From the NCBI GenBank assembly GCA_018692925.1, contig JABHLH010000002.1, positions 38,576 to 102,575 on the forward strand: a stretch of 64,000 nt of DNA, written 5' to 3'. This document shows, piece by piece, positions 2,930-63,832 of this stretch; positions within the stretch are counted from its first letter, which is position 1; every line of letters starts with the position of its first letter. Source of the DNA: an archaeon. Its GTDB lineage: Archaea; Nanobdellota; Nanobdellia; SCGC-AAA011-G17; GW2011-AR17. The translations under genes and the position numbers were made by a program. The notes under the pieces are model-generated. The model searched no databases, was not told where the DNA came from, and was given only the letters and a program-made list of their open reading frames with translations.

Positions 2930-4326
2930 TATAAACTCTTAAAGAATTTCCCAATCTTATTTGGCCATAACTTAATTCTACTCGGTCTAAAAATTAGTAT
3001 AATTCTGAATGGTAATTTTATCAATTCAATTAAGCCTGATTTTACTGCAACATCAAATTTATTTTCTATTCTCCAAGATTTGAAACCAAAGTAGATGAAC
3101 AATACAATTAACAGATAACAAATATATTTTATTGTACTTTTAGTTCCATTTGAATCTAACTCATATTTAGAAACTTCTGCACTTGTATACACAGGTAAAT
3201 TAACACTAAATTCTTCTTCATATTCTTCATTATAAGAATCCTTGTAAGTAACTTTAAATTTTATTTCTGTATCATCTTCTGCATTAACAAAAATATCATA
3301 GCTTGAAGTTTCAAAATCATCACTATCTAAATTTCCTAAGTATTCTTTGTTTGCACCAATAACAACATAACTATCATCTTCTAATAATTCTATATTCATA
3401 AATTTTAATTCTGTAGGTCCTACATTACTAACAGAAACAACAATTTCTCCTTTTCCACCTTCTTGGAAAGTATCAAAATTTTCTAAATTAAATGACAAAT
3501 CTGCTTCAGCACCAATCATAATTCCAAATGTATCTTGTTTAATAAATTCTGTACCATTAGAATTTTGGTAACTAATATTCATAGGGATTTTATAAACACC
3601 TGCTTCTGCATCTTCTTCAACAATAATCTCAAAATTAAAAGTATAATCTTCTCCTGCTCCTAATAAACTTAAACTTTTTTCTTTACTTGATTTGTAAGGA
3701 ACTATTGGCACATCAATTGAATCAATTGCTAAAACAAGATCAATATTTTTAAATGCACTTGTAGCTCCATTAATTATTGTAATATCTAGATCTGCAATTT
3801 TACCCGGAACTAATGTCTCAGGTTCACTAACAATACTATCTACATTTAGTGTAGCTTCAATTTCTTGTACATTAATATCTAAATAAGGAGTATAAACTCC
3901 ATTAGGATCATCTTCACTTGTATAAGTAAATCTTAATTCATTATCTCCTGCTGGCGCATCATCTGCAACTCTAACAACAAACTTTTTTATTACTTGTTCA
4001 CCTGGACCTAAATCTCCAACATCCCAAACAGCATCTTCTCCTTCTTTTAATTCAAATGGATAAGCTTCTAAAAATTCTAGCTCTATATTATTAACATCAT
4101 CTTGACCGACAATAGAAGTTGAACTTGACTCTTCAGTTTCAACAGCCATCCACAAATCAAAATATTCTCCTGGTGCAACTGGTGCTGGTGTATATTTTAA
4201 TGTAATTAATTGAACATCAATTATATTTTGTTTACTTGTATCAATCGTAACCGAACTGGTACCTGCATTCACAATACTCATTGTTAACAATATGACCAAA
4301 AATATTAATATTATTCCTCTTTTCAT
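2929..4326 (-). CDS. Large secreted protein with C-terminal membrane anchor, cotranscribed with the ABC exporter
   Basis: 465 aa with an N-terminal signal peptide (ILIFLVILLTMSIVNAGTSS), an acidic beta-rich body and a C-terminal TM (YICYLLIVLFIYFGF). Shares start/stop overlaps with its neighbours. Confidence 0.55.
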   Translation of the reverse strand: MKRGIILIFLVILLTMSIVNAGTSSVTIDTSKQNIIDVQLITLKYTPAPVAPGEYFDLWMAVETEESSSTSIVGQDDVNNIELEFLEAYPFELKEGEDAVWDVGDLGPGEQVIKKFVVRVADDAPAGDNELRFTYTSEDDPNGVYTPYLDINVQEIEATLNVDSIVSEPETLVPGKIADLDITIINGATSAFKNIDLVLAIDSIDVPIVPYKSSKEKSLSLLGAGEDYTFNFEIIVEEDAEAGVYKIPMNISYQNSNGTEFIKQDTFGIMIGAEADLSFNLENFDTFQEGGKGEIVVSVSNVGPTELKFMNIELLEDDSYVVIGANKEYLGNLDSDDFETSSYDIFVNAEDDTEIKFKVTYKDSYNEEYEEEFSVNLPVYTSAEVSKYELDSNGTKSTIKYICYLLIVLFIYFGFKSWRIENKFDVAVKSGLIELIKLPFRIILIFRPSRIKLWPNKIGKFFKSL

Positions 4327-5003
4327 TTTACCACCAGTCCATCTTTTAATTCAATAATTCTTTCAGCTTTTTTAGCTATATAATCATCATGTGTTACGAT
4401 TATTAAAGTTTTCCCTTCTTTTTTGTGCAACTCTTGTAATAAAGCTAAAATCTGTTCTCCAGTTTTTGTATCTAAATTACCTGTTGGTTCATCAGCTAAA
4501 ATAACTTCTGGATCATTTGCTAAAGATCTTGCAATAGCAACTCTTTGTCTTTCTCCTCCACTTAACTCTGAAGGTTTATGATCTAATCTATGGTCTAAAC
4601 CAACTTTTCTTAAAAGTATTTCAGCTCTTTTTTTTCTCTCTTCAGGCTCATAACCTTGAAAGATCATTGGAACCATAACATTTTCAACAGTTGTTAAACT
4701 CGGAATCAAATTAAAAGTTTGAAAAATAAAACCAATTTTCTTTCCTCTTATTCTTGCAAGTTCACCTTCATCTAAATTTGCAATATTTTTCCCATCTAAA
4801 TAGATTTTACCTTTTGTTGGGACATCTAAACAACCAACCATATTCAAACATGTACTTTTACCACTTCCACTCTTACCAATAATAGAAACAAACTCTCTTT
4901 CTTTTATATCAATATTAATCCCTCTAATTGCTGGAACTTCAACTTCTCCTAACTTATATATTTTCCAAGCATCCTGAACTCTAATCACACTCTTCTTTGA
5001 CAT
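4323..5003 (-). CDS. ABC transporter ATP-binding protein, MacB/LolD-type
   Basis: Walker A GKSGSGKST, ABC signature LSGGERQRVAIAR and Walker B ILADEPTGNLD. Confidence 0.9.
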   Translation of the reverse strand: MSKKSVIRVQDAWKIYKLGEVEVPAIRGINIDIKEREFVSIIGKSGSGKSTCLNMVGCLDVPTKGKIYLDGKNIANLDEGELARIRGKKIGFIFQTFNLIPSLTTVENVMVPMIFQGYEPEERKKRAEILLRKVGLDHRLDHKPSELSGGERQRVAIARSLANDPEVILADEPTGNLDTKTGEQILALLQELHKKEGKTLIIVTHDDYIAKKAERIIELKDGLVVK

Positions 5004-5035
5004 AATTAATTAGAAATAAACTTAGATAATAAACT

Positions 5036-5644
5036 TTATGGTTTTTTCTTAATTTTCTTTCCATTTATTTTTTCTATTTTTTTAAATTTAGTAATATCAA
5101 AAGAAATACCTCTCATTAATACAGGTTTTTTATTTTTATAATAAGTCTTTCCTTCAACATGATGATATCTTATATTGTTCTTTCCTATTACTAATTTTAT
5201 ATCATGACTAAAACTACCTGTTTTTAATGATTTTTCAATGTCTTTTTTTACTCTATTTTTATCTTCAGGATGAACAATATCCAAATATGTTTCAAAATTT
5301 ATTTTCTTTCCTTTTTTCACCTTAAAAATTTTATACAATTCATCTGACCATTTAACTTTATTCTTTACTATATCCCACTCCCAAGCACCCATATTTGCTA
5401 TTCTAAATGCTTCAGATAAAGTCTCAGCAAGTTTTACAGCTTTTTTCTTTTCTTCTTCTAAATCTTCCAACATATTCAAAAGTGCTTCAGAGCTAATTTC
5501 TTTTTTTGAAGGAGTTTTCTTTTTCTTCTTGTTTATTTCTTTAGCAAGTTTTTCTCCTTTTGTTATTAATTTATTCTCTAAATAAGCTTCATCAATTATC
5601 TTTTGTGTTATTTTTTTTAAGATTTTTTTCATTCTTCTCACCAA
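5036..5644 (-). CDS. PAS-domain protein with a Lys/Glu-rich coiled-coil N-terminus
   Basis: C-terminal region WEWDIVKNKVKWSDELYKIF...DIVHPEDK...RYHHVEGK...MRGISFDIT matches a PAS fold. Confidence 0.55.
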   Translation of the reverse strand: MVRRMKKILKKITQKIIDEAYLENKLITKGEKLAKEINKKKKKTPSKKEISSEALLNMLEDLEEEKKKAVKLAETLSEAFRIANMGAWEWDIVKNKVKWSDELYKIFKVKKGKKINFETYLDIVHPEDKNRVKKDIEKSLKTGSFSHDIKLVIGKNNIRYHHVEGKTYYKNKKPVLMRGISFDITKFKKIEKINGKKIKKKP

Positions 5645-5646
5645 TA

Positions 5647-6849
5647 TTATTTTTTAATTTTTCTTTCAAGCACTTTTATTCTTTTCTTCAATTCAATCAT
5701 TTTTAATTCTCTATTTTCAGATAACTTTGAAAATCTCTCTAATTGTATTGTTCTTTTTTTACTTTTTTCTTTAGCCTTATTCATTTCGGATATAGCTTCT
5801 TCTGTACCAATCCCTAATTCGTGTTTAGAACTACCTGTTCTAAGTATTGCCAATTTCAAACTAGCTAATATTCTATCTAAAGAATCTATTAAATTATTAA
5901 TTTCAAAAATCTTACTTTCTTTTATTTGAATCTCAAAATTACCTTTACTAATCTCATCAACACTTTCTGTCAAATCTTTAATTGGTTTTGAAATATATCT
6001 TGAAACAAAAAAGCCCATAAAAGAAATTAAAAAGATAATAAGTAAAAGATTCTTAATGCTTGAATATATTACTCCTTTTTTAGTTTCTCCTAATGCTTCA
6101 GCTTCATCAATTTTAACAACTAGTCCTACATCTAATACTTCAATATACTTTGTAATTGCAATAACTTCTTCTCCTCTATAATCATTAATATCATATATAG
6201 TCTTTTCAACACCTGAAACTGCTTCCGCCATTGGGAGATGAGATGCTTCAATCATTTCATTAGCTTCAAATCTTCTTTGAGTAAAAAAAACTATATCTCC
6301 ATCACTATCTTGATAAGCTAATAAACTTTCTCCAGTTTCTCCAAGTCCTGTCTGGTCTAAAATAATACTATCAAAAACACCTAGTCTTGCTTCTGTAACA
6401 ACAAATCCTTCCTTAAATGGTGTAGCAAGTAATAGTGTCTCTTCTTCAAATATTTTAGAAGTATATGCTAGAATTATTGTTTCTTCTTCCTTTAAAAAAT
6501 CATTAATATTTATGATTTCATTAATAAATGTCTCATCAGATGAAGTAATGATCATACCTTCTGAATCAACTGTATATAAAATCTCAAAATCTTCTTGTAT
6601 CTTAATTATTTCTTTTAATTCATCATTACTAAGATTTTCGTGTGTTGCTGTTATTTGAATATTTTCAACATTCTGTTTTACAAAATCTTCTACAATATCT
6701 TCCATTAATTGCGATCTTGATTCTAAATGCATATTAATTTTCTGTTCAAGAAGGTTAGATGTGTCAAAATAATTATTTGACAACATTATAAAACCTGCTA
6801 ATATTCCAACTAGGATAAAACTAAAAATAATGATTTTAGATAATTTCAT
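5647..6849 (-). CDS. Membrane sensor protein: cache-like extracytoplasmic domain plus HAMP, no output domain
   Basis: TM1, a roughly 240-aa periplasmic domain, TM2, a HAMP-like segment (ISKPIKDLTESVDEISKGNFEIQI) and a coiled-coil tail. Confidence 0.6.
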   Translation of the reverse strand: MKLSKIIIFSFILVGILAGFIMLSNNYFDTSNLLEQKINMHLESRSQLMEDIVEDFVKQNVENIQITATHENLSNDELKEIIKIQEDFEILYTVDSEGMIITSSDETFINEIININDFLKEEETIILAYTSKIFEEETLLLATPFKEGFVVTEARLGVFDSIILDQTGLGETGESLLAYQDSDGDIVFFTQRRFEANEMIEASHLPMAEAVSGVEKTIYDINDYRGEEVIAITKYIEVLDVGLVVKIDEAEALGETKKGVIYSSIKNLLLIIFLISFMGFFVSRYISKPIKDLTESVDEISKGNFEIQIKESKIFEINNLIDSLDRILASLKLAILRTGSSKHELGIGTEEAISEMNKAKEKSKKRTIQLERFSKLSENRELKMIELKKRIKVLERKIKK

Positions 6850-10905: not shown

Positions 10906-10989
10906 GCGCGAGTGCCGGAGTGGTCAAACGGGCTGGACTCAAAATCCAGTGGCTTAGTGCCTACGCAGGTTCGAAACCTGTCTCGTGCA
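10906..10989 (+). tRNA. tRNA-Leu (anticodon CAA), class II with long variable arm
   Basis: Acceptor GCGCGAG/CTCGTGC, anticodon stem CTGGA/TCCAG with loop CTCAAAA, long variable arm, T-arm GCAGG-TTCGAAA-CCTGT, discriminator A. CCA not encoded. Confidence 0.85.
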
Positions 10990-10998
10990 CTTTATTTT

Positions 10999-11766
10999 TT
11001 ATCTATACTCACTAAAACCTTGTTCACCATAGAATCTAGAAATAACTGTTTGTGGTATGAAATGAGGGTTACTTACACAACCTTCTAAAGAGCTTCCATC
11101 TTTATAATCTAGTTTTACATATCCATTACTATTTCCCAATATATTTTCTGGTCCTTCTTCAGGAATAATCTCTGCTTCAAATAATGTATCTGTAACCATT
11201 ACTTCTGCTTCTATTCTTCCTTCATAACTAAAATTCATAAATTCAAAAACTTTTTTTGTTTCTCCAACAATATAATCTATTCCACTTTCTTCTGAAGGTG
11301 TTAATACAGCTTCATGACCTTCTGCAATATTTGTATAACTTCCAATGTACCAACTTTCATCAAGATACATTTCTAATCCATAAATAATTCCCTCTTCTTC
11401 TCTAATAAATACTGGGCTTACATGATTAAGATAAATACTACAAGTTGAACAAAAATACATTTGTTTTGAGATATCTCCATCTGGCTGTAAGAATTTTAAT
11501 TCTTCTTCTACTTCACCTTCTTTAAATCTTCCTAAATGGTAAAGCATAGAATTTGTTTTTGGACCTGATTTTTCAAGGCCTTCTAATAAAACTTCTTCAC
11601 TATCAGCTTCTCTTCCATCTAATAATTCTTCACAACTTGTTTCTGGCCATAGTTCTTCACCCCAATCTTCACTATCCCAAAAATCTCCAGTATCATAAAT
11701 TGTATCAATTGGCTCTGTACAAGCATTTAAAATTCCAACTAAACTTAACATATTTACTAATTTCAT
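10999..11766 (-). CDS. Acidic secreted lipoprotein, hypothetical
   Basis: Signal peptide ending in the lipobox LNAC (MKLVNMLSLVGILNACTEP). 255 aa, very acidic. Confidence 0.55.
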   Translation of the reverse strand: MKLVNMLSLVGILNACTEPIDTIYDTGDFWDSEDWGEELWPETSCEELLDGREADSEEVLLEGLEKSGPKTNSMLYHLGRFKEGEVEEELKFLQPDGDISKQMYFCSTCSIYLNHVSPVFIREEEGIIYGLEMYLDESWYIGSYTNIAEGHEAVLTPSEESGIDYIVGETKKVFEFMNFSYEGRIEAEVMVTDTLFEAEIIPEEGPENILGNSNGYVKLDYKDGSSLEGCVSNPHFIPQTVISRFYGEQGFSEYR

Positions 11767-11846
11767 AAAAAAAAGAATATAACTTTTCTTTAAATAACTT
11801 CCTTTTTAACAAAAAATTTATAAATTCATTTAACTTAAAAAAATAA

Positions 11847-12428
11847 ATGGTCCATTTAAGTTTAGAAACTGCAATTTCAACAATAAAACCTTTATCTATT
11901 TTTGTAGCTGCTATGGTTGTTTATGCTATTTTCATTTTCAAATTTTATAGGTTTGTTGCAACAAGAGATATTTTTGAATTAAACTTACAACAATATTCTT
12001 CAAGATCTTCTTGGGCTTGGTTACAAAAATTACTTTCTGTCATTTTATACATTTTAGAATATTTAATATTCTTCCCTATTTTAGTAGCTATTTGGTCTGG
12101 AGTATTTTCTTTACTATTAATATTCCTTTCCAAACAAGATGTTTCTTTAGTTTTGCTAGTAGCAATTGCTATTGTAAGTTCTATTAGGGTTACTTCTTAT
12201 TACAATGAAGATTTAGCTAAAGATTTGGCAAAAATGTTGCCTTTTGCTCTATTAGGTGTTTTCCTAATTGACATCTCTTTTTTTACTTTTGAAACAATTC
12301 CAGCAACATTATTATCTATTCCTAGTTACTATAATGTCATTCTATACTACTTAATTTTTACAATTTTGGTAGAATTTGTTTTAAGAGTTGTCACCTTTAT
12401 TTTTGGACTACAAAACGATGTAGAATAA
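11847..12428 (+). CDS. Polytopic membrane protein, hypothetical
   Basis: 193 aa with about 5 predicted TM helices. Confidence 0.45.
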   Translation: MVHLSLETAISTIKPLSIFVAAMVVYAIFIFKFYRFVATRDIFELNLQQYSSRSSWAWLQKLLSVILYILEYLIFFPILVAIWSGVFSLLLIFLSKQDVSLVLLVAIAIVSSIRVTSYYNEDLAKDLAKMLPFALLGVFLIDISFFTFETIPATLLSIPSYYNVILYYLIFTILVEFVLRVVTFIFGLQNDVE

Positions 12429-12589
12429 TTCAACTTTTAGTTGAAAATTAGTCCTACAAAAGCTTTTTAAAGAGGAATTCTTCTTTTTATATTATATGGG
12501 AAACACCTTTTTTTCAGATACTATCAATGCTGTAAACGAAAAGAAACTTTGGGCATTAACTTATGCTAAAAGAAAGAAATAATTTATTT

Positions 12590-12934
12590 TCAATCTTTTC
12601 TTCTAATTAAGAAAGGCAGTAGTATAGAACTTTTTTCTACCACTTCATTTGTATAAGATAAACTTATTGCAACAACAACTACAATTGCAATTACAGAAAC
12701 AAATAGGATTCCTGCACTAAGAATTATTTTTTTATTTCCTAACAAATTTGCAAAACCTTTTTTTTCTTCAACAATAGCTTTTGTTTCTTTTACTTCTTGA
12801 GTAACTGTTCCTTGCTCTTGTATTGGAACTTGATGTGGTGCTCCTTGTGGTACTTGCACTCTTGGTGCCATTGGTCTAGAAATAATTTTCTTTCTACCAA
12901 ACAAAGGACCTCTTTTTGGGGTAAATACTTTCAT
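12590..12934 (-). CDS. Small membrane-anchored protein, hypothetical
   Basis: 114 aa with a Pro/Gln-rich N-terminus and one TM (ILSAGILFVSVIAIVVVVAISL). Confidence 0.35.
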   Translation of the reverse strand: MKVFTPKRGPLFGRKKIISRPMAPRVQVPQGAPHQVPIQEQGTVTQEVKETKAIVEEKKGFANLLGNKKIILSAGILFVSVIAIVVVVAISLSYTNEVVEKSSILLPFLIRRKD

Positions 12935-12957
12935 TAAAAAAAATAAGGGGAAAAGGA

Positions 12958-13578
12958 TTATTTAACCTTTTCTATTTCTTTTAGAATCTCTTCAACAATT
13001 TCTTGTATAGGTTTTTCTCCATTTACTTGTGTATAGATTCCCATCTCTTTGTAAAAGTCTACTAAAGGGGAAGTTTGTTCTTCGTAAACTTTTAACCTAT
13101 TTCTAATTGTTTCTAAATTATCATCTGGTCTTTGATACAATTCACTTGCACAACCATCACAAACATCATCTTCTTTTGGTGGCACATCTAATCCATAAAT
13201 TGCTCCACAACTTTTACACATTCTTCTTTTCACTGTTCTCTTTTCAATAATCTCATCAGAACAAAAAACATCAACAACAATATTCATAGTTTGAATTTCA
13301 TTTAATTTTTCTGCTTGCACAATAGTTCTTGGAAATCCATCTAAGATAAAATTATCTTCAGGTAATCCTTTTGCTAACAATCTAATAATTAGTTCATCCG
13401 GAACCAACAACCCCTTTTCCATGAACTCTTTTGCTTCTTTTCCTAAATCACTCTCATTCTTTACTTCATTTCTTAACAAATCTCCAGTAGAAATATGTTG
13501 ATAGTTTAATCTTTTTGTTAATAATTTAGCTTGCGTCCCTTTCCCTGACATTGGTTTTCCTAACAGTACGATTTTCAT
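12958..13578 (-). CDS. adk: Adenylate kinase, long bacterial type with Cys4 zinc lid
   Basis: P-loop GKPMSGKGTQA, GFPRT motif and lid CKSCG...CDGC. Confidence 0.9.
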   Translation of the reverse strand: MKIVLLGKPMSGKGTQAKLLTKRLNYQHISTGDLLRNEVKNESDLGKEAKEFMEKGLLVPDELIIRLLAKGLPEDNFILDGFPRTIVQAEKLNEIQTMNIVVDVFCSDEIIEKRTVKRRMCKSCGAIYGLDVPPKEDDVCDGCASELYQRPDDNLETIRNRLKVYEEQTSPLVDFYKEMGIYTQVNGEKPIQEIVEEILKEIEKVK

Positions 13579-13673
13579 AATCTTAAATTCTTTTCATATA
13601 TATAAAAAAGTTTCTATATTATTGTATATAAGAGCTTATAAATTCATTTGCTAGTAAATCTCTTGGTGAAACA

Positions 13674-14558
13674 GTGAGTATAATTGATAATTTCTCTTTT
13701 AATGCAAATTTAGGAGGGATGGCTGGAGGTAAAGGTTTAATTGGTCTTTATATTGCAGGAAAATTAAAATATGCTAGAATACCTTTCAAAGTTTTAAGGC
13801 CTGATAATTCAGTTAGAAATAATGAAAAACCTGGTCTAAGTTCAAGAATGTCTTCACATTTTTTTGAAGCTGAACTTTTTGATACAAAAAATGCTTCTTC
13901 AATTTTATCTTTATTAGAACCTCATATAGAATTATATCTTTTTGAAGAATTGCACATGGTTGAAGATACAGCTGGTTTATTTGGTGTTCTTGATGATATG
14001 ATTGATGCAAGATTAAGTTTGAATATTTTAGCTTTAACAAATGATACTGGTGCAAGAATTTTTCCAATTGCAGCTTATTGTTTATCTAGAGGAGCAAATA
14101 TAAAACAACATTATGGTGTTTGTCAACATTCAGATCTTTGTAGGGGGAAAGCTGTTTATTCTCAATTGATTGCAAAAGATGGAACTGTTGTAGAAGATTC
14201 TGGTCCAATTATTGCTTCAGGTGATGTTTTAGGTTCTGAAGAAAAAAAAATTGAAGGTGAAGTTGATTATCAACCAAGATGTAGAGGTCATTTTAATTTT
14301 GAAATGCCTAGGTCCTCAACTTATCAAGGTGGAATATTTATTCCTGATCCTAAAAGAATTCCTAGAGAACAATTACCTTCATGGTTACTAAACAGACAAA
14401 AATTAGTCAGAGAGAGATTAGATGAAAGAATTAAAAATTCTCATCATCATAAAGATTCATTTTTTGCTGAATATCCAAGTTCACATTTAATTGCAGAATT
14501 AAGACAAAGAGGAAGACATAAGGTCAAAACATATATTCAAGGTATAAGGAGGAGATAA
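13674..14558 (+). CDS. Hypothetical protein of unknown family, first gene of a two-gene module
   Basis: 294 aa. Contains a Gly-rich N-terminus (GGMAGGKGLIGLYIAGKL), a CQHSDLCRGK motif and an HHHKD run. No domain recognised. Its stop lies 1 nt before the next start. Confidence 0.5.
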   Translation: MSIIDNFSFNANLGGMAGGKGLIGLYIAGKLKYARIPFKVLRPDNSVRNNEKPGLSSRMSSHFFEAELFDTKNASSILSLLEPHIELYLFEELHMVEDTAGLFGVLDDMIDARLSLNILALTNDTGARIFPIAAYCLSRGANIKQHYGVCQHSDLCRGKAVYSQLIAKDGTVVEDSGPIIASGDVLGSEEKKIEGEVDYQPRCRGHFNFEMPRSSTYQGGIFIPDPKRIPREQLPSWLLNRQKLVRERLDERIKNSHHHKDSFFAEYPSSHLIAELRQRGRHKVKTYIQGIRRR

Positions 14559-14559
14559 A

Positions 14560-15153
14560 ATGAAAATAGCACTAATAGGAGCACACGGAACATTCAAAAC
14601 AACTTTAATTTATTTTTTAGCTGGGGTACTAAAAGCAAAAGGAAAAAGTGTTGGAATAATTAGAGAGGTTGTAAGATCTTGCCCCTACTTTAGAAGGGGT
14701 CATGGAAACATTCTTGCACAAAATTGGATTTTATTAACTCAATCTCAATTAGAAAGAGAATATCAAGACAAATTTGATTTTGTAATTTGTGACAGAAGTC
14801 TTATTGACAATTTTATTTATGCAAGAGAAGCTTACCAAAATGAAGATCAAGAATTACCTCAATGGATTGAACCTTTTGTAATGCATCATGCACAAACTTA
14901 TAATTTTTTATTCAAGACTCCTGTTTCTGAGCATGGTTTAATTGAAGATCAAATTAGGTCAACTGACAAAGAATGGCAACTAAATATTGATCAACAAATA
15001 AAAACTTATTTGAAAGAGAAAGAAATTAAATATGTAGAGTTACCTAAATCTCAAGCTGACAGTTTTGATGAAATTTTAGATTATGCAACTAGGCAAGCAA
15101 AATTCATGGCAAATAAAATAATTGATATGGATGTGCAAACAAAGATAATTTAA
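14560..15153 (+). CDS. P-loop nucleoside/nucleotide kinase, dNK/NadR-NRK-like
   Basis: Walker A GAHGTFKTT followed by a VICDRSLIDNFIY motif, comparable to ERS/IDTD motifs of deoxynucleoside or ribosylnicotinamide kinases. Confidence 0.55.
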   Translation: MKIALIGAHGTFKTTLIYFLAGVLKAKGKSVGIIREVVRSCPYFRRGHGNILAQNWILLTQSQLEREYQDKFDFVICDRSLIDNFIYAREAYQNEDQELPQWIEPFVMHHAQTYNFLFKTPVSEHGLIEDQIRSTDKEWQLNIDQQIKTYLKEKEIKYVELPKSQADSFDEILDYATRQAKFMANKIIDMDVQTKII

Positions 15154-15155
15154 TT

Positions 15156-15347
15156 TTATTTTATTGTTATTTTATAATATCCTTTTGATTTATAATTTCC
15201 TTCTTGTCTCTCATATGTACTTTCAACTGTCTTTGTTTCACCTGGTTTTAATGGCTCTTCTTGTATTCTTCGTGCTGCTTCATCTAATAATTTTTTACCT
15301 AAACCTTGATTTTTTCTCATTTGTTTTAATATTTCTCGATTTGACAT
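15156..15347 (-). CDS. Small basic hypothetical protein
   Basis: 63-aa ORF with normal composition. The antisense ORF 15164..15349 is hydrophobic low-complexity. Confidence 0.3.
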   Translation of the reverse strand: MSNREILKQMRKNQGLGKKLLDEAARRIQEEPLKPGETKTVESTYERQEGNYKSKGYYKITIK

Positions 15348-15418
15348 AATAATAGAATCTTCTTAGAATTTATAATCCTTTAGAAACTCTTATATAAACA
15401 TTTTTTATTCTTTATTTC

Positions 15419-16027
15419 ATGCAAAAAGCAATAGCTCTATTATCTGGTGGAATTGATTCTCCAGTAGCAATTTACAGAATGCAAGAACACTTTGACATAG
15501 TCGCTGTTCACTTTCACCAACTTCCTTTAACTGGTGAACATGAAATTGAAAAGGTAAAAGAATTAGCAAAAAAACTTAATGTGAAAAAATTATATTTAAT
15601 TCCTTTTGTTGATGTTTTCAAAGAACTTGTAGAAAAATGTAATCCTAGAGACTATTTTATTCTTTCAAAAATTGCAATGTTTAAAGCAGCTGAATTTATT
15701 GCAGAGAAAGAAAAAACTAACTTTCTAATCACAGGTGAAAATCTTGCACAAGTTTCTTCACAAACCTTATCTAATTTAAAATCTATAGAATCTCAATTAA
15801 AATTAAAAATATTAAGACCTTTACTAACTTTTGACAAACAAGAAATAATTAACATAGCAAGAGAAATTGAAACTTACGAAATTTCAAAAGGTCCAGAGAT
15901 TTGTTCTTTATTGGGTCCAAAAAATCCTTCAACAAAATCTTCAGTTTTCAAAATAAATCTTGAACTTCAAAAAATAGATTTGAATAAAATAATTCAAGAA
16001 AAAATAAAAGAAGCTAGTATCCTCTAA
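15419..16027 (+). CDS. thiI: Stand-alone PP-loop ATP pyrophosphatase domain of tRNA sulfurtransferase ThiI
   Basis: Exact PP-loop LLSGGIDSPVA. About 200 aa, matching the ThiI C-terminal domain. No THUMP domain in this ORF. Confidence 0.7.
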   Translation: MQKAIALLSGGIDSPVAIYRMQEHFDIVAVHFHQLPLTGEHEIEKVKELAKKLNVKKLYLIPFVDVFKELVEKCNPRDYFILSKIAMFKAAEFIAEKEKTNFLITGENLAQVSSQTLSNLKSIESQLKLKILRPLLTFDKQEIINIAREIETYEISKGPEICSLLGPKNPSTKSSVFKINLELQKIDLNKIIQEKIKEASIL

Positions 16028-16709
16028 TGTCAACTTCTTCAAAGGCTTCAGAACATATTATTTTAAAATTTTCCATTTCTTCTTTTGTATAAATTACTTC
16101 ACTTTTCAAATCTTCGTTAATAATTAAATTTCTTTTATCAAACTGTTGTAAAACGTATCTTTTACTTCCTTTCAACCAAGAACAAATCTTTTTGATATCT
16201 TCTTCTGTGGTTAAACTTCTAACTAATGTTGTTCTGAACTCATAATCCTTACCAGAATTTTTTATTAATTCTACACTTCTTTTTATTTTTTCTAAATCTA
16301 CTTTTACACCACAATTTCTCTCATAACTTTCTAAAGAACTTTTTATATCCATTGCAATAAAATCAACATATGGGATTAACTCTTCTAAAACTTCTGGTCT
16401 TGTTCCATTACTATCTAACTTTACTAAAAAACCTTTATCTTTTACTTTTTTTACAAACTCTAAAAGTCCTTCACTTAATGTTGGTTCTCCACCTGTAATT
16501 GTAATTGCATCTAATTTACCTTTTCTATCGTCTAAAAAACTTAAAATTAATTCTTCACTAATATCTTCTCCTTTTTCAGAAAATAGGCTTAACTCTGGAT
16601 TATGACAAAAGGGACATCTAAAATTACATTTAGGAAGAAAAAGAACGGCCGTAATCTGGCCAGGGTAGTCAATTAAAGAACTCCTAAGAATTCCTTTAAA
16701 ATTCAACAT
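16014..16709 (-). CDS. nrdG: Anaerobic ribonucleotide reductase activating protein (radical SAM)
   Basis: CNFRCPFCHN radical-SAM cluster motif. Lies immediately downstream of nrdD. Confidence 0.85.
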   Translation of the reverse strand: MLNFKGILRSSLIDYPGQITAVLFLPKCNFRCPFCHNPELSLFSEKGEDISEELILSFLDDRKGKLDAITITGGEPTLSEGLLEFVKKVKDKGFLVKLDSNGTRPEVLEELIPYVDFIAMDIKSSLESYERNCGVKVDLEKIKRSVELIKNSGKDYEFRTTLVRSLTTEEDIKKICSWLKGSKRYVLQQFDKRNLIINEDLKSEVIYTKEEMENFKIICSEAFEEVDIRGY

Positions 16710-16920
16710 TTTTTACAACTTCCAAAATCTCTTCTTCAGAGACTTTCTCTTTATTGAAAGCCTCTAAAGTTCTTCCGTATTTACTTTCTAAACTAGACTT
16801 CATACAAAAAGTTTTTCTATCAAAAAACTCAGCCTTTTTTCCTTTATTCCATTGTGTCACAGGTCTATGATATCCTACAACTCTACTATATACTTCACAT
16901 TGTTTTCCACATTTACTCAT
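16696..16920 (-). CDS. NrdD C-terminal glycyl-radical domain as a separate small ORF
   Basis: MSKCGKQCEVYSRVVGYHRPVTQWNKGKK carries the RVxGY glycyl-radical motif. The ATG at 16920 is preceded by the Shine-Dalgarno sequence AAAGGAGGTGA. Overlaps the nrdD stop by 8 nt. Confidence 0.65.
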   Translation of the reverse strand: MSKCGKQCEVYSRVVGYHRPVTQWNKGKKAEFFDRKTFCMKSSLESKYGRTLEAFNKEKVSEEEILEVVKNVEF

Positions 16921-18892
16921 TCTGCTCACCTCCTTTTGTGCTGACTACAGCTTCATATGGGCACTCATGATGTTCTCCTGCAATGTATCCATGCTCTGGA
17001 CAAATACTAAATGTTGGAGTTATTGTATAGTATGGTATTCTATATGTGTGTGCAATTCTTTTTACTAATTTTTTACACGCTTCAATACTATCTATTTTTT
17101 CTCCAATAAAACAGTGGAACACAGTTCCTCCTGTATACTTACATTGCAATTCTTCTTGGCTATCTAAAGCTTCAAAAATATCATCTGTTGCATTCACTGG
17201 TAACTGTGAACTATTTGTATAATATGGTTCTTCTGTTCCAGCTGTAATTATATTTGGATATTTCATCTTATCAATTCTTGCCAATCTATAACTAGTTCCT
17301 TCTCCAGGTGTAGCTTCTAAATTATAGATGTGTCCTGAATCTTCTTGGTATTGTTTTAATCTTGATCTCATAAAATCTAAAATCTCAATTGCAAAATCTC
17401 TTCCTTCATCATCAAGCATATCTTTCTTCAAGAAATTCAAACAACATTCATTCATTCCAATTAATCCAATTGTTGAAAAATGATGGTCTAAATTTTCTAG
17501 ATATCTTTTTGTGTAAGGCAACAATCCATATTCCATATATCTTGTAACAACCTTTCTTTTAATTTCTAAAGAATTTTGAGCCATATCCATTAAGATTTTT
17601 AATCTTCTAAAGAATTCGTCTCTATCTTTACTAACAAATCCTAATCTTGGTAGATTAATTGTAGCAACTCCAATAGAACCTGTATTTTCTCCAGAACCAA
17701 ACAATCCTCCAGTTTTACTTCTAAGTTCTCTTACATCAAGTTGTAATCTACAACACATACTTCTAACATCTGTTGGTTTCAACTCACTGTTAACAAAATT
17801 TTGGAAATAAGGGATACCATATTTTGAAGTCATTTCAAATAATATATTTGCATTATCACTATCCCAATCAAAATCTTTTGTAATGTTATAAGTTGGTATA
17901 GGGAAAGTAAATATTCTTCCATCAGCGTCTCCTTCCATCATACATTCCATGAAAGCTTTATTGATCATATCCATTTCCTTTTGATAATCTTTATACTTGT
18001 TTTCTTGTCTCTTTCCACCAATGATTACTTTTTCTTCTGCCAAATCTTCAGGTACTGTCCAATCAAATGTAAAATTTATGAAAGGTGTTTGTGTTCCCCA
18101 TCTGCTTGGTGTAGCAATATTAAATAGTAATCTTTGCATTTGTTGTTTAACTTCTTTGTAAGTCATATTATCTACTCTTACATATGGAGCTAGATAAGTA
18201 TCTACAGAGGACAAAGCTTGAGCTCCTGCCCATTCATTTTGCATTGTTCCTAAGAAATTAACCATTTGTCCAATTACAGTATCAAAATGCTTTGGTTGTT
18301 TTGTTTGTAACTTTCCATAAACTCCACCAAAACCTTCTTCTAACAATTGTCTAAGTGACCAACCTGCACAGTAACCTGAGAACATACTCAAATCATGTAA
18401 GTGGAAATCCCCATTTGAATGTGCATTTTTAATTTCTGCAGGATAAATATTATTCAACCAATAATTAGCAGTAATTTTTCCAGAGATGTACAAAATCAAA
18501 CCTCCAAGAGAAAATCCTACATTACTATTTTCATTTACTCTCCAATCAATTTGATCAAGGTATTCTTTCATTGTACCTTCAACATCTAATAATACTTTTT
18601 TACTCTCTCTTTCTCTCCTTCTATTCTCTCTATAAATGATAAAAGATTTTGCTGCTGCATGATCATTGTCTTTTATTAGAACTTCTTCTATTGAATCTTG
18701 AATTTCTTCTACTGAAGGAATTTGATAAGGATTTTTTTCTTCAACCATTCTAGCAACTTTTTGTGCTAGTTCTTGTGCTTTATCTTTACTACCAATTCCA
18801 GTTGCTTTCATTGCACTGAATATTGCTTCTGCTATTCTCTCTTTATTGAAAAGAATAATACTTCCATCTCTTTTTTTTACATGTGTTACCAT
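16913..18892 (-). CDS. nrdD: Anaerobic ribonucleoside-triphosphate reductase (class III) catalytic polypeptide, lacking the glycyl-radical motif
   Basis: 659 aa with an N-terminal ATP-cone and the class III core. Ends ...CPEHGYIAGEHHECPYEAVVSTKGGEQNE before the RVxGY motif. Confidence 0.9.
   Translation of the reverse strand: MVTHVKKRDGSIILFNKERIAEAIFSAMKATGIGSKDKAQELAQKVARMVEEKNPYQIPSVEEIQDSIEEVLIKDNDHAAAKSFIIYRENRRRERESKKVLLDVEGTMKEYLDQIDWRVNENSNVGFSLGGLILYISGKITANYWLNNIYPAEIKNAHSNGDFHLHDLSMFSGYCAGWSLRQLLEEGFGGVYGKLQTKQPKHFDTVIGQMVNFLGTMQNEWAGAQALSSVDTYLAPYVRVDNMTYKEVKQQMQRLLFNIATPSRWGTQTPFINFTFDWTVPEDLAEEKVIIGGKRQENKYKDYQKEMDMINKAFMECMMEGDADGRIFTFPIPTYNITKDFDWDSDNANILFEMTSKYGIPYFQNFVNSELKPTDVRSMCCRLQLDVRELRSKTGGLFGSGENTGSIGVATINLPRLGFVSKDRDEFFRRLKILMDMAQNSLEIKRKVVTRYMEYGLLPYTKRYLENLDHHFSTIGLIGMNECCLNFLKKDMLDDEGRDFAIEILDFMRSRLKQYQEDSGHIYNLEATPGEGTSYRLARIDKMKYPNIITAGTEEPYYTNSSQLPVNATDDIFEALDSQEELQCKYTGGTVFHCFIGEKIDSIEACKKLVKRIAHTYRIPYYTITPTFSICPEHGYIAGEHHECPYEAVVSTKGGEQNE
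16926..16933 (-). promoter_or_regulatory. Shine-Dalgarno sequence (GGAGGTGA) for the glycyl-radical small ORF
   Basis: Minus strand reads aaaaGGAGGTGAgcagaATG. A comparable AGAGGTGA precedes the GTG start of the class II RNR gene. Confidence 0.5.
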
Positions 18893-20218: not shown

Positions 20219-20292
20219 AGCCTCAGCCGTGATTTGAACACGGGACCTCTTGCTTACCAAGCAAGTGCTATACCGAGCTAAGCCACTGAGGC
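20219..20292 (-). tRNA. tRNA-Thr (anticodon GGU)
   Basis: Reverse complement folds as acceptor GCCTCAG/CTGAGGC, anticodon stem CTTGC/GCAAG with loop TTGGTAA, T-arm CCGTG-TTCAAAT-CACGG, discriminator U. Confidence 0.85.
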
Positions 20293-62754: not shown

Positions 62755-63306
62755 ATGAAAATAACATTATGTGGTAGAATTGGTTCAGGAAAATCTGTTA
62801 TTGCAAAGGCTTTAGCTAAAGACTTAAATTTAAAGCATTATTCTACTGGGGACTTAATGCGTGAGATTGCTAAAGAAAAAGGTTACACAATTGAAGATTT
62901 CATGAAAATCAGATCTGATGACATTGACCATCAAGTTGATTCAAGAACAAAAAAGATTGGTGAAGAGGAAGACAATTTTATATTTGATAGTAAACTAGCA
63001 TTCAATTTTATTGAAGATGCAATTAAGATATTTTTAGATGTTACTTATGAAGAAGCTGCAAAAAGAATATTTGAAAATCAAAGAAACTCTGAAGCTCCAG
63101 CATCTTCACCAGAAGAATTAGCTATTAGAAACAAAGAAAGGTGGGAAGTAGACAGAAAAAAGTACCAAAAATTATACAGTGTTGACATTGATGATAAGAA
63201 AAACTATGATGTTTACATTAAAACCACAGGAAAACCTTTAGATGAAGTCATCCAAGAAGTTAAACGAGCTATACTCTCATTTTCAGAAAAACAAGAAGAT
63301 AATTGA
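62755..63306 (+). CDS. cmk: Cytidylate kinase, archaeal type
   Basis: MKITLCGRIGSGKSVIAKALAKDL. 183 aa. Uses a TGA stop. Confidence 0.7.
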   Translation: MKITLCGRIGSGKSVIAKALAKDLNLKHYSTGDLMREIAKEKGYTIEDFMKIRSDDIDHQVDSRTKKIGEEEDNFIFDSKLAFNFIEDAIKIFLDVTYEEAAKRIFENQRNSEAPASSPEELAIRNKERWEVDRKKYQKLYSVDIDDKKNYDVYIKTTGKPLDEVIQEVKRAILSFSEKQEDN

Positions 63307-63832
63307 TGAGAGGCTTTCTGAATTTAAAACAAAGAAAGATGATAGAGAGATCTTTTTTGAACTTTGCTTTTGTATTTTAGCTGCAAACACTTCTTCAAAA
63401 ATGGCTTCAAGAGTTGTTGAAGGATCTAAAGATATTCTAATTGATTCTACTTATGAAGAATTAAACAAGAAATTAAAAGAATTAAGTTGTCGTTTTTATA
63501 ATCGAAGAACTGAATACATATTTTATGCTAGAACTATTCCCATAAAATTTGACAGAGAATATTTGGTAAAAAATATCAAAGGTCTTGGTTACAAAGAATC
63601 TTCTCACTTTCTAAGAAATATAGGTTATTCTGATTATGCTATTTTGGACAAACATATTTTAAGATCTTTAGAAGAATTTGGAGTCATTAAAGAGATTCCT
63701 AAATCTTTGAATAAAAAGAAATATTTAGAGATTGAAGAAAAGATGAAACTTTGGTCCAAAGAGATTAAAATTCCTATGGACGAACTTGATTTAGTCCTTT
63801 GGTCTAGGAAAACTGGTGAAGTTTTGAAGTGA
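63242..63832 (+). CDS. N-glycosylase/DNA lyase, archaeal Ogg2-type HhH-GPD
   Basis: FELCFCILAANTSS...KGLGYKESSHFLRNIGY. Overlaps the cmk 3' end by 65 nt in another frame. Confidence 0.65.
   Translation: MKSSKKLNELYSHFQKNKKIIDERLSEFKTKKDDREIFFELCFCILAANTSSKMASRVVEGSKDILIDSTYEELNKKLKELSCRFYNRRTEYIFYARTIPIKFDREYLVKNIKGLGYKESSHFLRNIGYSDYAILDKHILRSLEEFGVIKEIPKSLNKKKYLEIEEKMKLWSKEIKIPMDELDLVLWSRKTGEVLK

Follow-up and report, generated by a model that had tools for sequence, protein, structure and literature searches.

Thymidine kinases (TKs) of the TK1 type (PF00265), known from structures of the Bacillus anthracis/cereus (2J9R/2JA1), Ureaplasma (2B8T) and human (1XBT) enzymes, are recognised by a P-loop of the form GxMxxGK[ST], a Walker B and catalytic-base segment hhhhDE[AG]QFF and two zinc knuckles. 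Deoxynucleoside kinases (dNKs) have an Arg-rich LID (RxxxRxR), and the ribosylnicotinamide kinase (RNK) of NadR belongs to the Pfam family AAA_28 (PF13521). Here we report two adjacent open reading frames, ORF1 and ORF2, in a 64,000-nucleotide stretch of contig JABHLH010000002.1, hereafter the window. We are highly confident that ORF1 is TK1-derived, that ORF2 is an AAA_28 kinase and that the two form a conserved pair, and we lean towards a role of the pair in thymidine/deoxynucleotide salvage. For the overall explanation, an operon of two translationally coupled kinases that is inherited vertically and serves thymidine/DNA-precursor salvage, the case stands roughly in balance.

The DNA belongs to a DPANN archaeon of the Woesearchaeota/Nanoarchaeota type. 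At 29% GC, the window encodes archaeal translation factors and a class III ribonucleotide reductase (RNR) together with NrdG and NrdR, and many of its genes fall into no family. An earlier note on this DNA, made from the letters alone, had placed the two ORFs one nucleotide apart and beside adk; the coordinates, the TAA-n-ATG junction and a divergent upstream adk agreed with it, and all of the motifs that it had picked out (GGMAGGKGLIG, CQHSDLCRGK, HHHKD, GAHGTFKTT and CDRSLIDNFIY) were present. Coordinates of the features are listed in Table 1.

ORF1 encodes a divergent homologue of TK1-type thymidine kinases

The exact ORF1 sequence is deposited at NCBI as MBT3731376.1 with the annotation 'hypothetical protein [archaeon]'. 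The earlier note had seen no recognisable family in this protein, a statement that held for a direct Pfam scan only; weak PHROG and NCBIfam matches already spoke against it, and profile searches overturned it. ORF1 alone gave sub-threshold TK matches to PHROG 592 (E 1.5e-4, aa 13-210) and NCBIfam NF003297 (E 0.16). A word-indexed homologue search returned two clusters only, ORF1 itself and one relative with 70% identity, and a search of the same type using a 9-sequence profile gave 3 proteins only. The exhaustive HMMER search, performed with a two-sequence profile (ORF1 and P0002) against 1.84e9 representatives, found ten proteins in total; P0055-P0062 were matched at E 4e-21 to 9e-4, and six of the ten passed the gathering score of PF00265 (TK). 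ORF1 matched P0055 by BLASTP (E 7e-31), and hhalign of ORF1 plus P0002 with five Pfam-positive TKs gave 99.9% probability (E 6e-33, 201 columns). When the profile of the ORF1 clade was compared with the PDB, the TK1-type structures 2J9R, 2JA1, 1XX6, 2B8T and human 1XBT were matched with a best E of 1.4e-22, and ORF1 aligned with TK1 over about 200 residues. The gene 5' of the ORF2 homologue also matches PF00265 in the P0021, P0030, L012, L015 and L175 contigs. These results showed that ORF1 is a TK1-type homologue, and the candidate novel family proposed in the earlier note thereby resolved to a well-known one.

Two of the motifs picked out beforehand are landmarks of TK1: GGMAGGKGLIG corresponds to the P-loop and contains the TK1-specific Met (GxM..GK), and CQHSDLC is the first zinc knuckle. 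YQPRCRGHF provides the second knuckle together with the Y-x-P-R-C lasso end, and ORF1 also shares with TK1 the catalytic Glu after strand 3 and the LxxD..G..F hairpin region. The catalytic-base position E92 is Glu in 11 of 12 aligned members and Asp in L015; the H94-M95 that follows is largely kept in the clade, canonical-like members having Q-F or H-L. Residues C150, C156, C203 and H206 are predicted from the alignments to form a four-ligand zinc lasso domain. The third motif, HHHKD, is present in ORF1 without being conserved: the closest relative reads NNFQNNS at this place. Unlike TK1, ORF1 has GKG instead of GK[ST] in the P-loop, EE instead of DE in Walker B with E-x-H-M for DE[AG]QFF, a C-x5-C instead of a CxxC first knuckle, His as the fourth ligand, Leu for the Arg of the R/K-T-Q-R segment and an extra basic tail of 88 residues. 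Because it is missed by a direct model match and lacks the Walker A Ser/Thr, ORF1 appears to be a divergent TK1 variant and not a plain member of the family.

The 88-aa tail gave no domain match in Pfam, and in full length it was found in ORF1 and P0002 only. P0059, P0061 and P0056 have shorter tails of a related kind; those of P0059 and P0061 share the related motif Y-x-[FS]-x-x-L-[IVM]-x-[EQ]-[LV], and that of P0056 has only 38 residues. As a separate observation, P0054 (650 aa, a unit of about 55 aa repeated 12 times in tandem) matched the ORF1 tail at E 1.5e-22, a value that is the sum of 12 weak repeats. Its segment AEYTSSRLITEVKQRRARL resembles AEYPSSHLIAELRQRGRHK of the ORF1 tail, and a like motif stands at the C-termini of P0059 and P0061. 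P0054 was set aside as a relative of the tail: each repeat copy matches weakly, and the likeness is probably due to chance.

ORF2 encodes an AAA_28 kinase about equidistant from thymidylate kinases, deoxynucleoside kinases and NadR

ORF2 matched AAA_28 at E 4e-15 with 56.7 bits against a cut-off of 27, and the match covers aa 2-164, corresponding to profile positions 1-159 of 164. Its AlphaFold2 (AF2) model had a predicted local distance difference test score (pLDDT) of 87. Foldseek comparison of this model with the PDB placed the Mycobacterium tuberculosis (Mtb) thymidylate kinase (TMPK) 4unr_B first (E 9.4e-7), and TMPKs of Aquifex, Thermus and Thermotoga, deoxyadenosine kinases (dAKs) of Giardia and Mycoplasma mycoides, and NadR were also matched, overall at E of about 1e-6 and template-modelling (TM) scores of 0.55-0.68. 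In the sequence-profile comparison with the PDB, the dAK 2jaq was matched at E 2.6e-4 (aa 1-97 only), NadR 1lw7 at E 6.5e-3 and the Mtb TMPK at E 0.02. By fold and sequence, ORF2 is about equidistant from thymidylate kinases, deoxynucleoside kinases and NadR, and the earlier suggestion of a dNK- or RNK-like kinase, for which a Foldseek check had been proposed, was borne out.

The three groups are resembled in different parts of the protein. Like TMPKs (PF02223), ORF2 has the same fold (Foldseek E 1e-6 to 1e-4, TM 0.55-0.66), a P-loop of the form GxxGxxKTT, and D-R-x after strand 3 with a Tyr at +9, and the gene contexts of its family connect it with the step that follows TK and dUTPase. In contrast to TMPKs, it has neither the Arg conserved in their helix 3 nor an Arg-rich LID, and its TMPK fold match is no better than that to dAK or NadR. 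With the dAKs of the dNK family (2JAQ and Giardia 8PUU; TM 0.60-0.68) it aligns in MKIAI-G..G.GK(S/T)T, E-x-x-x-x-P-Y-F, a Gln of helix 2 and DR[ST]hh[DE]; E36 and D78-R79-S80, aligned with KEP.. and DRT of 2jaq, are invariant in 34 homologues, and Q54 also falls on a dNK landmark in the profile comparison with 2JAQ. Unlike dNKs, ORF2 is shorter and has a NadR-like C-terminal half and LID, region 102-173 being alignable with NadR 1lw7 (E 0.0065). The AF2 model superposes on NadR 8X7F (E 2.2e-6, TM 0.64); unlike NadR, however, ORF2 stands alone, without the nicotinamide mononucleotide adenylyltransferase (NMNAT) and helix-turn-helix parts, has Phe in the P-loop and lies among DNA-precursor and replication genes.

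Among named relatives, the closest are phage proteins that carry the annotation 'thymidylate kinase' (PHROG 2107, E 2.7e-21), for example those of the Streptomyces phages Daubenski (gp91) and Coruscant and of Bacillus phage G (gp293). They are 26-29% identical to ORF2 by tblastn, rank first among all structural matches (TM 0.75, E 6e-12) and sit in DNA-metabolism modules. In contrast to ORF2, they have the canonical Gly P-loop and no paired TK, and their name is an annotation only. An NCBIfam dTMP kinase model also matched ORF2 partially (aa 67-105, E 0.027; model cut-off 193 bits).

The TFK form of the P-loop, with Phe before the Lys, on which the earlier note had not remarked, was found in 13 loci of the Woesearchaeota-type clade. 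Elsewhere this residue is mostly Gly; six bacterial loci have Asn, and P0048 has Leu. Such variability before the P-loop Lys is unusual.

The pair is conserved, coupled and vertically inherited

The order adk (-), TK-like gene (+), AAA_28 gene (+) was found in 12 Woesearchaeota-type lineages, namely the window, P0002 (L001-L006), L007, the P0021 contig, the P0030 contig, L012 and L013, L014, L015, L095, L175, L176 and the P0023 contig, so that co-occurrence across genomes, proposed earlier as a check, was confirmed. adk is a conserved neighbour of the pair in 12/12; in the window it matched Pfam ADK (E 1.5e-46) with ADK_lid and the NCBIfam adenylate kinase model (E 3e-70). Database labels of the ORF2 homologues read Nanoarchaeota or Candidatus Woesearchaeota. 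Across the lineages the TK partner varies from 214 to 307 aa, with a precomputed Pfam TK signal that is clear, weak, faint or none, and the TK partners are 22-33% identical to ORF1 compared with 63-77% for their ORF2 partners. In the comparison of the window with L001, dN/dS was 0.35 for ORF1 (core 0.30, tail 0.48) and 0.085 for ORF2. ORF1 is therefore under purifying selection, about four times more relaxed than that on ORF2.

In relatives the ORF1-ORF2 junction is either a 1-nt gap (TAAAATG) or an ATGA overlap, in agreement with the translational coupling claimed earlier. The GTG start of ORF1 is taken as real because P0002 of locus L001, 70% identical to ORF1, has ATG at the homologous start codon, codons 2-15 have a dN/dS of about 0.2, and the upstream elements are conserved. 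These are TTATAAA at 13637-13643, at -38 to -32 relative to the start, and GGTG 6-9 nt 5' of the GTG; both stand at identical offsets in L001 and 3 nt farther upstream in L007. Judged by their sequence and position, TTATAAA would be an archaeal TATA box and GGTG a Shine-Dalgarno site, and the T-rich tract after ORF2 would be an archaeal terminator of the bicistron; scans of 12500-16500 for hairpin terminators and Rfam families gave nothing.

The neighbourhood shared with relatives comprises a MacB-type ABC transporter, adk, the pair, a thiI-like gene and nrdG/nrdD/nrdR. GC content is 0.305 for ORF1 and 0.296 for ORF2 against a mean of 0.291 (sd 0.029) over 61 window genes; the slight GC enrichment reported earlier is thus not meaningful. 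Since the neighbourhood is syntenic in relatives and the composition ordinary, the pair is vertically inherited and was not recently acquired, contrary to the horizontal acquisition that the earlier note had thought possible. The same note had envisaged a novel family and a kinase, horizontally acquired as a new nucleotide-modifying module. Such a view could draw on the missing direct Pfam match of ORF1 and on the two clusters of the word-indexed search, but ORF1 resolves to TK1, GC is average, synteny extends across 12 lineages, PADLOC gives no defence-system match and nothing points to nucleotide modification; we regard it as scarcely credible.

Gene contexts of ORF2 relatives

Relatives of ORF2 occur in several other settings. 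In the Woesearchaeota locus L020 (4001-4962 and 6802-8493), the kinase has the canonical Gly, and its gene overlaps a dUTPase gene at the latter's start; an RNR large subunit is encoded about 2 kb downstream, and ABCE1 lies on the upstream side. In L023, L037, L072, L098, L111 and L121, six loci that we assign to a Pacearchaeota type (two of the six are so labelled), the kinase, again with the canonical Gly, is placed between MCM and an OB-fold RPA-like gene, and coding regions often overlap or abut there. On the bacterial contig L156 (63% GC; 4938-6263) the ORF2 homologue stands tail-to-tail with a canonical TK carrying GTMFSGKSTE and VDEVQFF, their 3' ends overlapping, which is an independent association of TK with the ORF2 family.

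Among the matches listed by the metagenome scan for ORF2 relatives, most were distant bacterial homologues, and L095 and L156 were the informative ones. For Acidobacteriota and other bacteria, in which the family is common, clustering the neighbours of about 70 loci gave no nucleotide-related conserved neighbour, and the most frequent one was a family III CoA-transferase-like ORF, amid many spurious high-GC ORFs. NAD genes (NMN adenylyltransferase, pnuC and others) were absent from every context examined.

A proposed role in thymidine salvage

From the observed homology, gene order, coupling junction, selection and conservation, and ORF2 fold, substrates and activities were inferred as follows. 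ORF1 would consist of an N-terminal P-loop alpha/beta domain, with K20 and with E92 as the candidate base, and of a C-terminal zinc lasso, and it would phosphorylate thymidine or deoxyuridine to the 5'-monophosphate. Since the Walker A Thr is replaced by Gly and the Walker B Asp by Glu, it may handle Mg2+ unusually, without the Walker A hydroxyl, as adenylate kinases do. Adenylate kinases function with a GKG P-loop, and that of the window adk reads GKPMSGKGT. The AGGAGG-TAA-n-ATG junction would couple the synthesis of ORF2 to that of ORF1, and ORF2 would take the next step, from thymidine monophosphate (dTMP) or another deoxynucleoside monophosphate (dNMP) to the diphosphate, as an analogue or supplement of thymidylate kinase, while the neighbouring adk may rebalance adenine nucleotides.

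Several findings point to such sequential steps: the coupling of ORF2 to a TK, its TMPK-like P-loop pattern and the annotations of its phage relatives; the overlap with a dUTPase gene, since TK and dUTPase both feed dTMP; and the very strong conservation of ORF2, which would be expected of an essential step. The linkage to replication genes is reminiscent of the tmk-holB pairing in bacteria. A specific action of ORF2 on dTMP is a tentative assignment, for which the case falls somewhat short of balance. More doubtful is the broader proposal that the AAA_28 kinase with the Phe P-loop (GxHGTFKTT) serves Woesearchaeota-type DPANN archaea as a non-orthologous kinase for thymidylate or for dNMPs broadly, that the wider family is an unrecognised class of DNA-precursor kinases, and that the module has fixed stoichiometry with a fast-evolving TK1 derivative lacking the Walker A Ser/Thr.

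Nucleoside salvage, as already suggested by the earlier note, is the best reading of the pair. Woesearchaeota reportedly have a minimal capacity for nucleotide synthesis and may use extracellular DNA (PMC8421398), which fits a salvage module. A literature search on TK or Tmk in DPANN/Woesearchaeota and on the function of the PF13521/AAA_28 subfamily returned nothing relevant. As a salvage operon the locus is real, conserved and mostly ordinary, and what remains of interest is the partner kinase together with the two deviant P-loops.

Evidence against sequential salvage, and alternative explanations

Several observations weigh against a salvage pair acting in sequence, and some of them concern ORF1. 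Its direct Pfam scan had no match at E<=1, thus PF00265 was not reached directly, and the AF2 model, built on a two-sequence alignment, had a pLDDT of 30 and was unusable, so that the ORF1 fold is taken from homology. The GKG P-loop is confined to ORF1 and P0002, all other clade members having GKT, and the Walker B Asp is Glu (E91) in ORF1, at a position that is D, E, N, P or A across the clade. With a dN/dS about four times that of ORF2, ORF1 could be a weakened or repurposed enzyme.

ORF1 might accordingly be a dead or repurposed pseudokinase derived from a TK, binding thymidine or dTTP and regulating or scaffolding ORF2, possibly through the basic tail. The loss of the Walker A Thr in this lineage only, the replaced Walker B Asp, the lower identity of the TK partners, the lineage-specific tail and the tight translational coupling, which implies fixed stoichiometry, would all suit this explanation. 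However, ORF1 still has K20, R48, R58, E92, D124 and the complete set of four zinc ligands, the core is under purifying selection, the GKG P-loop is that of working adenylate kinases, and an ORF1-ORF2 complex is hypothetical. We consider a pseudokinase unlikely.

Other points against sequential salvage concern ORF2. It had no match to PF02223 (Thymidylate_kin) at E<=1 or to the NCBIfam Tmk equivalogs, and its best sequence-profile match in the PDB is a deoxyadenosine kinase, with E36 on the Glu of the dNK 'EP' motif. To our knowledge, the only characterised AAA_28 member is the RNK of NadR, a nucleoside kinase and not a nucleoside monophosphate kinase. Only two Arg are invariant among 34 homologues of the ORF2 family. 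Many homologues come from large-genome Acidobacteriota, cultured Geothrix among them, hosts in which a canonical Tmk is assumed. Canonical tmk, thyA or thyX was found neither by a P-loop pattern search over the window nor in Pfam listings for the outermost 10 kb or so within either end of the window and for the 10 kb of flank next to it, a range that bears little on the whole genome. Finally, L017 is the sole locus of the Phe clade without an adjacent TK; a staphylococcal-nuclease homologue (3192-3605) stands there 5' of the kinase, with a signal- or lipobox-like N-terminus (MKRIFLILLLLLSAC).

As an alternative, the two kinases might work in parallel steps, ORF2 being a second nucleoside kinase of dNK or RNK type whose substrates are deoxy- or ribonucleosides but not thymidine; the arrangement would resemble the way in which TK1 together with dAK or deoxyguanosine kinase (dGK) covers salvage in Mycoplasma, Bacillus or Giardia. 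The alignment of the P-loop, E36, Q54 and DRS with dAK 2jaq argues for it, as do the Giardia dAK with the best TM-score among the PDB matches (0.68), the AAA_28 membership, the paucity of invariant Arg, the apparently secreted nuclease upstream in L017 and the homologues in bacteria presumed to have Tmk already. On the other hand, ORF2 gave no match to PF01712 (dNK) in the Pfam scan, the Arg-rich LID of dNKs is absent, with R133 alone conserved there, and the class III RNR next door reduces the need for salvage of dA, dG and dC. The dUTPase and MCM/RPA contexts and the strong conservation fit an essential step of the dTTP pathway at least equally. Taken together, parallel steps have an appreciable probability, well below an even chance.

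The AAA_28 assignment also raises the question of whether ORF2 is a nicotinamide riboside kinase whose pairing with TK is incidental. AAA_28 is the NadR RNK family, NadR structures were matched, and P0014, P0021, P0030, P0031 and P0053 are named 'nicotinamide riboside kinase' by JGI, but the similarity to NadR is no better than that to TMPK or dAK, and the neighbours are TK, adk, dUTPase, RNR, MCM and RPA-like genes with no NAD gene nearby. This explanation is very unlikely.

Thymidine/deoxynucleotide salvage stays the favoured role of the pair, and the results have consequences for annotation. The 'hypothetical protein' MBT3731376.1 can be annotated as a thymidine-kinase homologue. More broadly, TK genes of these archaea have diverged beyond standard models, with a Pfam signal ranging from strong to none over the 12 lineages, and since such models miss divergent TKs, metabolic reconstructions may wrongly report thymidine salvage as absent. 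The partner represents a well-conserved AAA_28 subfamily with a deviant P-loop, whose neighbourhoods repeatedly point to dNTP supply. If it were a thymidylate or dNMP kinase analogue, it would fill a DNA-building step in host-dependent archaea and give many phage and bacterial homologues a function.

Table 1 Positions of the gene pair, its sequence motifs and the adjoining features in the window
Feature	Position	Strand	Description
adk	12958-13578	-	divergent from the pair; long bacterial-type adenylate kinase, CxxC..CxxC lid
adk/ORF1 intergenic region	13579-13673		divergent; holds TTATAAA box and GGTG
ORF1	13674-14558	+	294 aa, GTG start; divergent TK1-type thymidine-kinase homologue
ORF1 P-loop G14-G-M-A-G-G-K20-G21	13713-13736	+	equivalent by alignment to TK1 GxMxxGK[ST], Gly for Ser/Thr
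ORF1 Walker B/catalytic-base region YLFE91E92LH94M95V	13935-13961	+	canonical TK1: hhhhDE[AG]QFF
ORF1 first zinc knuckle C150-x5-C156	14121-14141	+	aligns with CxxC of 2j9r/2ja1 (HMM alignment, hhalign)
ORF1 second zinc knuckle C203-R-G-H206	14280-14291	+	in YQPRCRGHF; aligns with Bacillus TK YEPRCRHCH
ORF1 C-terminal extension	14292-14555	+	88 aa, basic; contains motif AEYPSSHLIAELRQR
Coupling junction	14547-14562	+	AGGAGG 14547-14552, TAA 14556-14558, one base, ORF2 ATG at 14560
ORF2	14560-15153	+	197 aa, ATG start; AAA_28 (NadR/Ttd14-type) P-loop kinase, dNK/TMPK/RNK fold
ORF2 Walker A G7-A-H9-G-T-F12-K13-T-T15	14578-14604	+	Phe for the canonical Gly before Lys
ORF2 E36	14665-14667	+	invariant; aligns with the 'EP' motif Glu of M. 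mycoides deoxyadenosine kinase
ORF2 C77-D78-R79-S80-LID83NFIY87	14788-14820	+	DRS is the equivalent of dNK ERS/DRT and TMPK DRY motifs
ORF2 LID segment D130-Q-I-R133-S-T-D136	14947-14967	+	family consensus DGxRSxD; D130 and R133 invariant
T-rich tract	15154-15175	+	immediately 3' of the ORF2 stop
ThiI-like PP-loop ATPase	15419-16027	+	202 aa, PF02568 E 6e-54; no THUMP or rhodanese domain; NCBIfam PRK08349-type

Neighbouring genes and other observations

A ThiI-like gene, whose product may act on tRNA or on a free nucleotide, follows the pair on the 3' side in the window, in L001-L007 and in the P0021, P0030 and P0023 contigs. The gap between ORF2 and this gene (15154-15418) is 265 bp in the window compared with 47 bp in L001, and here the ThiI-like gene is probably a transcription unit separate from the pair. 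An antisense ORF of 63 aa at 15156-15347 weakly matched the C-terminal part of a GNAT acetyltransferase (E 0.004) and may be a gene remnant or an insertion.

Transfer RNA genes flank the region, tRNA-Leu(CAA) at 10906-10990 (+) and tRNA-Thr(GGT) at 20219-20292 (-); neither adjoins the pair, and no integration site is indicated.

The NrdD gene of the window is split into a 659-aa ORF at 16913-18892 (-), with an ATP-cone and PF13597 positions 1-525, and a 77-aa ORF at 16696-16929 (-), with positions 526-562 (the glycyl-radical end), the two overlapping by 17 nt. The same split occurs in relatives, with pieces of 74-82 aa, and so does not come from misassembly; the gene is either naturally split or read through a programmed frameshift. 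In L001, NrdD (11008-14268, 1086 aa) contains an intein with a LAGLIDADG domain, which the window NrdD (659 aa) does not have. Elsewhere in the window, a cytidylate-kinase-like P-loop kinase of 183 aa at 62755-63306 (+) overlaps by about 65 nt an Ogg-HhH gene, 8-oxoguanine glycosylase-like, at 63242-63832 (+).

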